Shown here piece after piece: positions 50,403 to 51,991 of a DNA stretch of 64,000 nucleotides; position 1 is the first letter of the stretch, and each line of letters begins with the position of its first letter. Below the pieces are notes generated by a model. The model saw only the letters and a list, made by a program, of their open reading frames with translations, was not told where the DNA came from and did not search any database. Both the position numbers and the translations under genes were made by a program. The DNA comes from a virus, in the UHGV virus genome UHGV-0272730; one strand, 5' to 3'.

Positions 50403-51991
50403 GAGTAAAATTTACGAAATTTATATTTTTTATAAAATTTTATCGGTTGTCCCAACCTCTGGGTCACCATCATATGTGAATAAAATATCTACCCTTCTTA
50501 ACAACCTTCTTAATCTTACTCTCTATATAGTTATATAGTACTATATAGTATCTTAGTAACTATCTAGTGGTCTTAATAGCCCTCTGTATAGCCCTTCTAA
50601 ATAGCCCTCTAAACACTCTTCTAACAAGCCTTCTTAACAACCTATACAATCACCTTAACCATCTCTCTACACTCTCTTAGAAGCTCCTATACACCTCTTA
50701 ATCTCTATGTCAGCTATGATACTCTCTATAGGTGTTCACTAGGTGCTACTAAGCCTCTATATAGACTGTTTTAACAAACTTAACAGGAATATCTTTACAG
50801 ACCTTATCTCACAAGGTCTAACACGGTACTAACAAGGTATCTTATAAGCCTGTTATTACCTGTATTTTAGAAAGACTGTATAGGTAATTATTCAGATTTT
50901 TAAAATTTTTATAAAATAGGACTATCAAGTCATTTTTTAGGGTCTTTGAAGGAACTGAAAAATATCTGTAGAAGATGTATATCTGCTTGGTAGCCCTTAA
51001 CAGCTCCCTTACAAGTACTTTGCAAAATTTTAAAATATCCTTAACAATCTCTTAACAGCTCTAACACCTTCTTAACAACTCTTCAAAGGTCTTAACAGAT
51101 TCTTAACAGAACTAACAAGAGCGTAACAGTTTCTTAACAGTTGATACATAGGCTTTACAGAATCTTAACAGATGACTAACAAGAGCTAACAAGTTAATTT
51201 TTAAGAGTTATTTTGTTAAGATAATTAACAAGTCTCTAACAAGTGTTTAATCTTTTTAACAAGCTATTAACATGGTCACTACTCTTTCTTATCGTTCCCT
51301 TTCCCTTCTTAGTGATTCTTTAAACATACCTCTTAAAAGCTCTCTATAGCTCTTTATAGCCTCTTTTAAGCCTCTTCCTAGTAGTTACACCCCAACTGTA
51401 CAGATACCTCTTTATAGAGCTTTACAGGAGCTTTTAAGGCTATGTCAAAGACTCTTACAAGGCTTTTACGTGGCCTTAACAGAGATTTAACAAGGGGCTA
51501 ACAAGTCTCTAACAAGTGCCTTAAAAGCATAACTATGTAGGGATTGTTAAGAAATTGTTAAGAGAATGTTAAGGGGGCTAGCATTTACGTAACTTTATAG
51601 CCCCTTTTACGTAACTTTTAAGCTACTTCAAAGTAACTTTATAGCCCCTATAACATACTTTTAAGACACTAACAAGCCCTTTTTAGATATTCACAAGAAT
51701 ACTAATGAGATGATAAAGCTTACACCCTTATAAGATTCTTTTAAGTCTCTGGGAAGCTTTATAAAGGGCTTTTAAGGGTGAGGTAATGCAATCCCTTAAG
51801 TTAGGTTGATAAGGCTGTTATAGAGCTTTATAGAGCGTTTAAATGGGCCATCCCCTTTCTGGGGTTATTGGCTTTTATTTAAGTTGATTTGATAAGAGGT
51901 TATAGAGTAGACTATAGAGTTATTGCTTTTAAGGTCTGATAAGATTCTGGAAAGGTGAGGGAAAGGGATTGTATAAGGATTCGATAGACGT
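50403..51991. repeat. 1.6 kb ORF-free region dense in short direct repeats
   Basis: Dozens of CTTAACAG / CTAACAAG / TTAACAA / TATAGAGC / TTTTAAG copies; no ORF of 60 aa or more on either strand; flanked by terminators of convergent gene blocks. Confidence 0.8.

Follow-up and report, generated by a model that had tools for sequence, protein, structure and literature searches.

An ORF-free, repeat-filled interval as the probable terminal repeat region of a Felixounavirus genome

The virus genome UHGV-0272730, analysed here as a stretch of 64,000 nt (referred to throughout as the window), contains at positions 50403-51991 an interval that lacks open reading frames (ORFs), is filled with short repeats and lies where two blocks of genes converge. 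A preliminary description, made from the letters of the sequence, noted these traits and offered four explanations for them without choosing between them: a packaging or terminal region, a replication origin or iteron field, a protein-binding array (for example for partition), or noncoding RNA. Here we describe the anatomy of the interval and compare it with related phages, a comparison which indicates that it is very probably the terminal (concatemer-junction) region of a Felixounavirus genome, with a direct terminal repeat (DTR) of 590 bp at 50989-51578 (± 2 nt).

The stretch that is free of ORFs of 60 aa or more on either strand extends from 50365 to 52054 (1,690 nt); no other such stretch in the window is as long, the runner-up being one of 1,100 nt inside the tRNA cluster. 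The longest ORF lying fully within 50403-51991 has 37 aa, as compared with 65 ± 16 aa in mononucleotide shuffles, only 0.3% of which gave a maximum that short. On the left, the rightward gene block is closed by a Rho-independent terminator on the plus strand (50376-50402; stem 50379-50393, then a T-run), while on the right terminator hairpins on the minus strand (51992-52045; stem 52016-51997, then a T-run) close the leftward block. Orthologues of both are annotated in phage ASO1A, and the sequence holds a second minus-strand hairpin at about 52029-52044. The original account of 1.6 kb without an ORF of at least 60 aa between converging terminators was thus accurate, coordinates included.

A total of 256 phage records match the region, 193 of them across at least 80% of its length, and all come from Felix O1/wV8-type myophages (Ounavirinae, mostly Felixounavirus). 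By its sequence, the window is itself a Felixounavirus (Felix O1/wV8-like) genome. Nearly all of the matching records leave the region unannotated and almost none annotates a gene there.

The saturation with repeats was borne out by motif counts far above chance and by a strong 11-nt period. On the plus strand, CTAACAAG is present in 9 copies in the region and in a single copy in the remaining 62 kb, and 8 of the window's 13 copies of CTTAACAG fall within it; counted on both strands, CTTAACAG has 16 matches against 3.75 ± 1.9 in shuffles. For the shorter TAACAR, 26 of 74 plus-strand copies lie in the region, which makes up 2.5% of the window. Both copies of TATAGAGCTTTA are found only here, and a palindrome, TATATAGTACTATATAGTA, is located at 50532. 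The dominant spacing between repeats is 11 nt: the self-match at this lag reaches 0.41 across the whole region (z = 9.7) and 0.47 within the DTR (z = 9.0), with same-length pieces of the window as the reference, and Tandem Repeats Finder reports periods of 11, 22, 31 and 62 nt. Intrinsic curvature was considered as the cause of the 11-nt period and rejected. In a crude wedge-model calculation, the arrays themselves are not predicted to be curved, and bends are predicted only locally beside the two cut sites described below, at 50801-50950, just outside the left site (0.9th percentile of the window), and at 51526-51700, across the right site (about the 3rd percentile). Within the limits of this crude model, the absence of intrinsic bending from the arrays favours protein binding over a purely structural signal.

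The terminal-region option received strong support from congeneric phages, whose DTR maps to 50989-51578 of the window (PMC4837284, PMC6454146, PMC11350853). In UAB_Phi87, Bal31 digestion and run-off sequencing defined a 608-bp DTR in a genome of 87,669 bp; heating left the restriction pattern unchanged, indicating that there are no cos ends, and two discrete SpeI fragments were sensitive to Bal31 (PMC4837284). UAB_69 (OL656108), from the same laboratory, has a 618-bp 'DTR' annotated in the orthologous gap (reported in PMC11350853), which corresponds to 50987-51580 of the window and is 100% identical to UAB_Phi87 15150-15767. SpeI sites at 13014 and 19582 of UAB_Phi87 flank this locus and delimit a 6,568-bp fragment; since the Bal31-sensitive SpeI fragments of 4,322 and 2,819 bp (PMC4837284) sum to 7,141 bp, that is, to 6,568 bp plus about 573 bp, their sizes are as expected if both genome ends lie within this fragment.

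Independent records place the ends at the same positions. The record of Ro111lw carries an exact 613-bp repeat at both of its ends, running from window position 51578 to 50989, and a DTR of 613 bp was called for this phage by PhageTerm (PMC6454146). In NBEco004, the sequence repeated exactly at the two ends of the record measures 628 bp and corresponds to window positions 50989 to 51578, and the H12 record, which is PhageTerm-oriented (PMC11737134), opens at 51578. Ro111lw, H12 and Pr103Blw were all assigned by PhageTerm to the DTR class (PMC6454146, PMC11737134, PMC8303462). A search with 50989-51578 added ZX4221, CRP22, SLAM_phiST56 and NBSal004, which open at the same boundaries, and returned several records that begin or end exactly at the DTR edges and hold the DTR twice; BPS15Q2 opens about 14 nt from the boundary. 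In the orthologous records, the same sequence is thus found at both ends of the virion DNA. The permuted ends of headful (pac) packaging are not seen, as the relatives show defined ends at two conserved positions across many independent records, and the Bal31 and PhageTerm results agree with defined, non-headful ends (PMC4837284, PMC6454146).

The DTR at 50989-51578, as placed by homology to UAB_69, UAB_Phi87, Ro111lw, NBEco004 and H12, is present once in the window because the assembly collapsed its two copies, which would be expected at both ends of the virion DNA. It is orthologous to, and 88-96% identical with, the DTRs of UAB_Phi87, UAB_69, Ro111lw and Pr103Blw (608, 618, 613 and 581 bp; PMC4837284, PMC11350853, PMC6454146, PMC8303462), and it has both boundary boxes in common with them and lies, as they do, between the same two converging blocks of genes. 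It differs from them in being represented as a single, collapsed copy with ends placed by sequence comparison, and in its length of 590 bp, which reflects a different number of array units. With the repeat placed between the converging blocks, both blocks read outward on the linear chromosome and stop before the sub-terminal DNA, and the terminators insulate the terminal block from these two gene blocks transcribed toward the chromosome ends.

A terminal repeat has been described before in this genus, although most database records omit its annotation. This phage group is used in therapy, and the majority of its GenBank records were opened arbitrarily, usually at rIIA, with the terminal region left unannotated; the FO1a record, opened at rIIA, was uninformative. 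Two sets of candidate termini were rejected. The UAB_Phi87 record (JN225449) has identical ends of 542 bp, which correspond to window 35553-36094, some 14 kb away. Because 87,603 - 542 + 608 gives the published genome size of 87,669 bp, this duplication is an assembly overlap, and inferring termini from such a record can therefore mislead. Similarly, the scattered openings of NJ12, RPN213, BPS17W1 and ESCO50 inside the region were set aside as arbitrary or k-mer-overlap openings. Recognizing the gap as the chromosome end is thus of practical use, given that records are opened arbitrarily and that the UAB_Phi87 overlap can be mistaken for a terminal repeat.

Each end of the repeat coincides with a conserved box (the cut is marked here by ^). 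The left cut-site box, TGTATATCTGCTT^GGTAGCCCT, occupies 50976-50997, with the cut between 50988 and 50989, so that the left genome end lies at 50989 in PhageTerm-type records or at 50987 in the run-off-based annotation. The right box, AATGTTAAGGGGGC^TAGC, occupies 51567-51584, with the cut between 51578 and 51579 and the right genome end at 51578, or at 51580 by the run-off-based annotation. The sequences around the ends thus read ...TGTATATCTGCTT^GGTAGCCC... on the left and ...AATGTTAAGGGGGC^TAGCATT... on the right. The left box forms an invariant block of 22 nt straddling the cut, which is the second-longest in the non-coding region after one of 24 nt in the left flank (50830-50853). The box cores, TGTATATCTGCTT^GG and GGGGC^TAGC, are kept in Suspvirus, Mooglevirus and Kolesnikvirus, and TGTATATCTGCTT is identical in these three genera and Felixounavirus.

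The same ORF-free gap between the same converging blocks was found in Suspvirus SUSP2, in Mooglevirus Sf18 and in the Kolesnikvirus members Erwinia phage Tian and Salmonella phage SE5. Each of the four possesses one ATCTGCTT box followed by direct TAACA units and, further to the right, inverted TGTTA units and then GG(C/G)TA(A/G)C. In Erwinia phage Tian, the boxes alone predicted a DTR of 439 bp (L006 1845-2283). The record ends of vEam_PM_21, SPARTY, Hena2 and Roscha1 coincide with this prediction, as does an exact 444-bp repeat at both record ends of phage M7 (L006 1843-2286). Since the prediction matched real ends, the boxes mark termini in a second genus as well, and together they provide a simple sequence rule, which worked on the Erwinia phages, for locating where any Ounavirinae genome truly begins and ends. 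The Kolesnikvirus repeat (Erwinia phage M7/phiEa21-4 group, about 440 bp) therefore resembles the one described here in its left and right boxes, in its syntenic ORF-free gap and in having direct TAACA arrays after the left end and inverted TGTTA units before the right end. It differs in being shorter, at 439-444 bp, and in the sequence between the motifs, which cannot be aligned beyond matches of 75-127 nt at 73-77% identity.

Between the boxes, the 590-bp repeat holds 19 direct TAACA(R) units and 3 inverted ones, spaced mostly 11 nt apart. A direct array of about 17 units (CTTAACAG / CTAACAAG) runs along the plus strand from 50996 to 51275, also with a spacing of mostly 11 nt, and has a 31/62-nt higher-order tandem structure at 51040-51191. 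It is followed by a central, less repetitive part at about 51280-51470. Beside the right end lies an imperfect palindrome (51475-51573), one arm of which is made up of four direct TAACA(R) units (51477-51515) and the other of three inverted TGTTAAG units (51543-51573), again at 11-nt spacing, and which stops 5 nt short of the right cut. The orientation of TAACA(R) is therefore strongly biased to one strand up to the right terminus itself, where the copies become inverted; these inverted units are kept in all four genera.

An alignment of 8 genomes from 3 genera was used to compare the conservation of these parts. The TAACA/TGTTA columns are 82% invariant, against 55% of the other DTR columns (Fisher p = 3e-8), which answers the call in the preliminary description to check motif conservation in related genomes: the TAACA units are kept better than their spacers. 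The left and right flanks have 61% and 57% invariant columns, so that the non-coding block as a whole, at 57-61%, is about twice as conserved in this alignment as the neighbouring ORFs at 27-29%. Pairwise identity to SUSP2 is 0.77-0.79 for the left flank and the repeat, 0.65 for the right flank and 0.51-0.65 for the flanking ORFs. Homology across the subfamily thus demonstrates purifying selection on the cut sites and the motif arrays. The 31-nt and 62-nt tandem structure implies that the array grew by duplication, as it would have done if the repeats were functionless, either decayed or selfish, and had spread by minisatellite expansion in a tolerated gap. We regard this explanation as exceedingly improbable, given a block that outdoes its neighbouring genes twofold in conservation, motif positions that outdo their spacers, and an architecture that four genera have kept in spite of their different flanking genes.

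Just inside the left end, 20-50 nt from it and reading inward, lies a sigma-70-like element on the plus strand, CTTACA-N17-TAAAAT (51008-51036; 9/12 match), whose counterpart in SP116 reads TTAACA-N17-TAAAAT. A putative element of the form (C/T)T(T/A)ACA-N17-TAAAAT is present at orthologous positions in SP116, UAB_69, SUSP2, Sf18, Tian and SE5, and the inward-reading candidate recalls the promoters near the T7 left end. This element is relevant to the suggestion of noncoding RNA, according to which a transcript starting from 50411-50438 or 51008-51036 would carry CUUAACAG / CUAACAAG units and act as a protein sponge or a regulator. Both sites are sigma-70-like matches, the latter kept across genera, and the strong strand bias of the motif counts in favour of this reading. 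However, promoter-like sites number 13 in a sigma-70 scan against 10.6 ± 3.5 expected, and Rfam 15 gives only two matches, at the interval edges, with E-values of 0.7-0.9, far below the gathering score. In addition, because the bias is reversed precisely where the right terminus lies, a site acting at the level of DNA is a better fit than an RNA, and the boundaries of the conserved unit are DNA ends rather than transcript ends. With promoter-like sites at chance level and no accepted Rfam match, noncoding RNA is a very unlikely account of the interval.

A similar layout is known from T7. Dunn & Studier are said to have described, in 1983, the T7 junction as a 160-bp repeat flanked by the short-repeat arrays SRL and SRR. 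In the T7 sequence, we found C[CT]TAAAG units, spaced 13 nt apart, both within the 160-bp repeat and immediately beside it. The region described here likewise has arrays of a short motif at near-helical spacing within and beside its repeat. It thus resembles T7/T3 in combining a short exact terminal repeat with such a motif (C[CT]TAAAG in T7, CT(T)AACA(A)G here), and it resembles T7 in having promoter-like elements just inside the left end. The two phages, a podovirus and a myovirus, are unrelated, and the systems differ in spacing (13 nt in T7, 11 nt here) and in repeat length (160 bp against 590 bp). Furthermore, the genes are read inward from the left end in T7 but outward to the ends, in both neighbouring blocks, in the present phage, and the T7 small terminase is gp18, whereas none is recognisable here.

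The non-coding DNA on either side of the repeat is repetitive as well. The left sub-terminal flank (50403-50988) measures about 585 bp and contains CT-rich repeats phased at 10-12 nt as well as the 10-nt repeats TATATAGTA; an AT-rich block within it, at 50901-50919, is conserved, and at 50475-50483 it has one perfect match to the DnaA box. The right flank (51579-51991), of about 410 bp, contains 22-nt repeats at 51584-51649 and TTTATAG / TTTTAAG units, with lags of 22 and 11 nt. Such features raise the possibility of a replication origin, which could coexist with the terminal repeat and in which the phased repeats would serve as iterons for a phage initiator and the AT-rich block at 50901-50919 as the unwinding element. 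The repeats are indeed dense, phased and conserved, the AT-rich blocks are conserved too, and the match at 50475-50483 is one of only two perfect DnaA boxes in the window. As in the iteron origins of lambda (ori) and plasmids (oriV), several short direct repeats lie in helical phase by AT-rich DNA. However, the unit measures 5-8 nt here, where typical iterons have 17-22 nt, there is no enrichment of DnaA-like boxes (3 with at most one mismatch in the region against about 2 expected), and no initiator, helicase or primase gene is adjacent, the flanking ORFs belonging to families of unknown function. The region sits at a point of transcription convergence, the GC skew of the window tracks gene orientation and carries no independent origin signal, the boundaries of the unit are DNA ends, and the terminal-repeat layout shared with T7 fully accounts for the repeat architecture. 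The proposed origin or iteron field thus found no specific support, and we consider it quite improbable. A partition function is implausible because the phage is virulent. The preliminary interpretation was thus supported in part, in that it left four options standing: the terminal region is the one that held, and the origin and the noncoding RNA found no support.

The genome encodes a terminase large subunit (TerL), as would be expected of a DTR-type phage. Its gene lies on the minus strand at 32356-33972 (phrog_979, E = 3e-233; Pfam Terminase_6N and Terminase_6C), 17 kb from the terminal region, and its product is the predicted maker of the two terminal cuts. TerL proteins of the Felix O1 type cluster as a DTR group (PMC4837284). 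Adjoining the terminase gene block is a cluster of 26 tRNA genes (34402-40187, minus strand), which includes two each of tRNA-Met, tRNA-Ser and tRNA-Gln; the combination of a 26-tRNA cluster and a large terminase is as expected for the Felix O1/wV8-type group.

The anatomy of the repeat suggests how packaging might proceed. In the accepted model for the short exact terminal repeats of T7 and T3, strand-displacement synthesis between two staggered cuts duplicates the repeat. This type of packaging is treated in Casjens & Gilcrease 2009, as cited in PMC4837284. By analogy, replication and recombination through the repeat would generate concatemers with one repeat per junction. TerL and a putative DNA-recognition partner would then assemble on the helically phased TAACA(R) units, 19 of them direct and 3 inverted beside the right end, and the terminase would cut at the two conserved boxes, ...ATCTGCTT^GGTAGCC... 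and ...TTAAGGGGGC^TAGC..., after which strand-displacement synthesis between the staggered cuts would duplicate the repeat as in the T7/T3 model. The TAACA(R) units are about one helical turn apart, uniform in strand except for the inversion at the right edge, and better kept than their spacers, all of which points to binding sites for a recognition protein. The idea of a protein-binding array is therefore compatible with a terminal repeat and gains indirect support from the better conservation of the motif. That the arrays are binding sites used for packaging, where they would position the cuts, is suggested by this anatomy; we put it forward tentatively, at somewhat less than an even chance.

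Several points weigh against reading the locus as a terminal repeat packaged in this manner. The ends of this isolate are placed through relatives that are 88-96% identical. The SpeI fragments of 4,322 and 2,819 bp differ from the 4,433 and 2,753 bp predicted from the UAB_69 boundaries by -111 and +66 bp, and at either end there is a disagreement of 2-3 nt between the boundaries from run-off-based annotation and those of PhageTerm-type records. No small terminase and no protein that might read TAACA(R) was recognised among the ORFs around TerL and those flanking the region. Finally, a packaging role is something that we infer for the arrays, and even in T7 it is not firmly settled what the analogous arrays do. 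By contrast, the identity, position and conservation of the repeat, the boxes and the arrays are demonstrated by homology.

With respect to the boundaries, the run-off-based annotations (UAB_69, M7) reach 2-3 nt beyond the PhageTerm-type ends (Ro111lw, NBEco004, vEam_PM_21), at window positions 50987-50989 and 51578-51580 and at L006 1843-1845 and 2283-2286; this discrepancy could reflect short overhangs or a method artefact. With respect to the small terminase, the ORFs around TerL and both ORFs flanking the terminal region matched only families of unknown function, and the lack of a recognisable small terminase had already been noted for Felix O1 (PMC3185647). Directly upstream of TerL, in the usual position of a small terminase, is an acidic ORF of 66 aa (33979-34179, minus strand), for which we found no family annotation and only near-identical homologues.

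The arrays could instead act on the ends after injection, for example in protection from exonucleases, in end-to-end recombination into concatemers or in the pacing of DNA entry. They lie within and beside both chromosome ends, which are the first and the last DNA to enter the cell, and they are kept across phages of Escherichia, Salmonella, Citrobacter, Shigella and Erwinia. Two-step injection was, however, not found reported for this group in the literature searched, and the fact that inverted units abut the cut site points to a part in positioning cleavage, which leaves a post-injection role unlikely.

If the arrays do serve packaging, a broader possibility can be considered for the Ounavirinae, in which a small terminase is not recognisable: the phased TAACA(R) units could form a loading platform for a putative recognition protein that places TerL at boxes 440-630 bp apart, and would represent a 'pac' system of its own, common to the subfamily, that makes short exact terminal repeats. 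We regard this as doubtful at present, although such a platform, if real, could explain what the analogous T7 arrays do. The phased arrays also offer a tractable handle on the question of how the concatemer junction is located and cut by a myovirus in which no small terminase can be recognised. In our literature search, terminal repeats were found to be reported, with neither the arrays nor the boxes described. The anatomy of arrays and boxes and its Ounavirinae-wide conservation thus appear to be undescribed, and would be a modest addition to what is known rather than a new kind of element.

Two further observations concern related sequences. GenBank GU169904, labelled 'Staphylococcus phage SA1', contains at 135420-137040 a complete copy of the Felix O1-type terminal region, with 89% identity, and is probably a mixed or contaminated record. 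To the right of the terminal region, the minus-strand spacers between the small leftward genes at 52303-58492 contain families of 55-99-nt cassettes, with 5-7 copies each, every cassette comprising a GC-rich hairpin, a promoter-like sequence and a ribosome-binding site; in kind, they match the repeats of 57 bp and 39 bp that have been reported for Felix O1.

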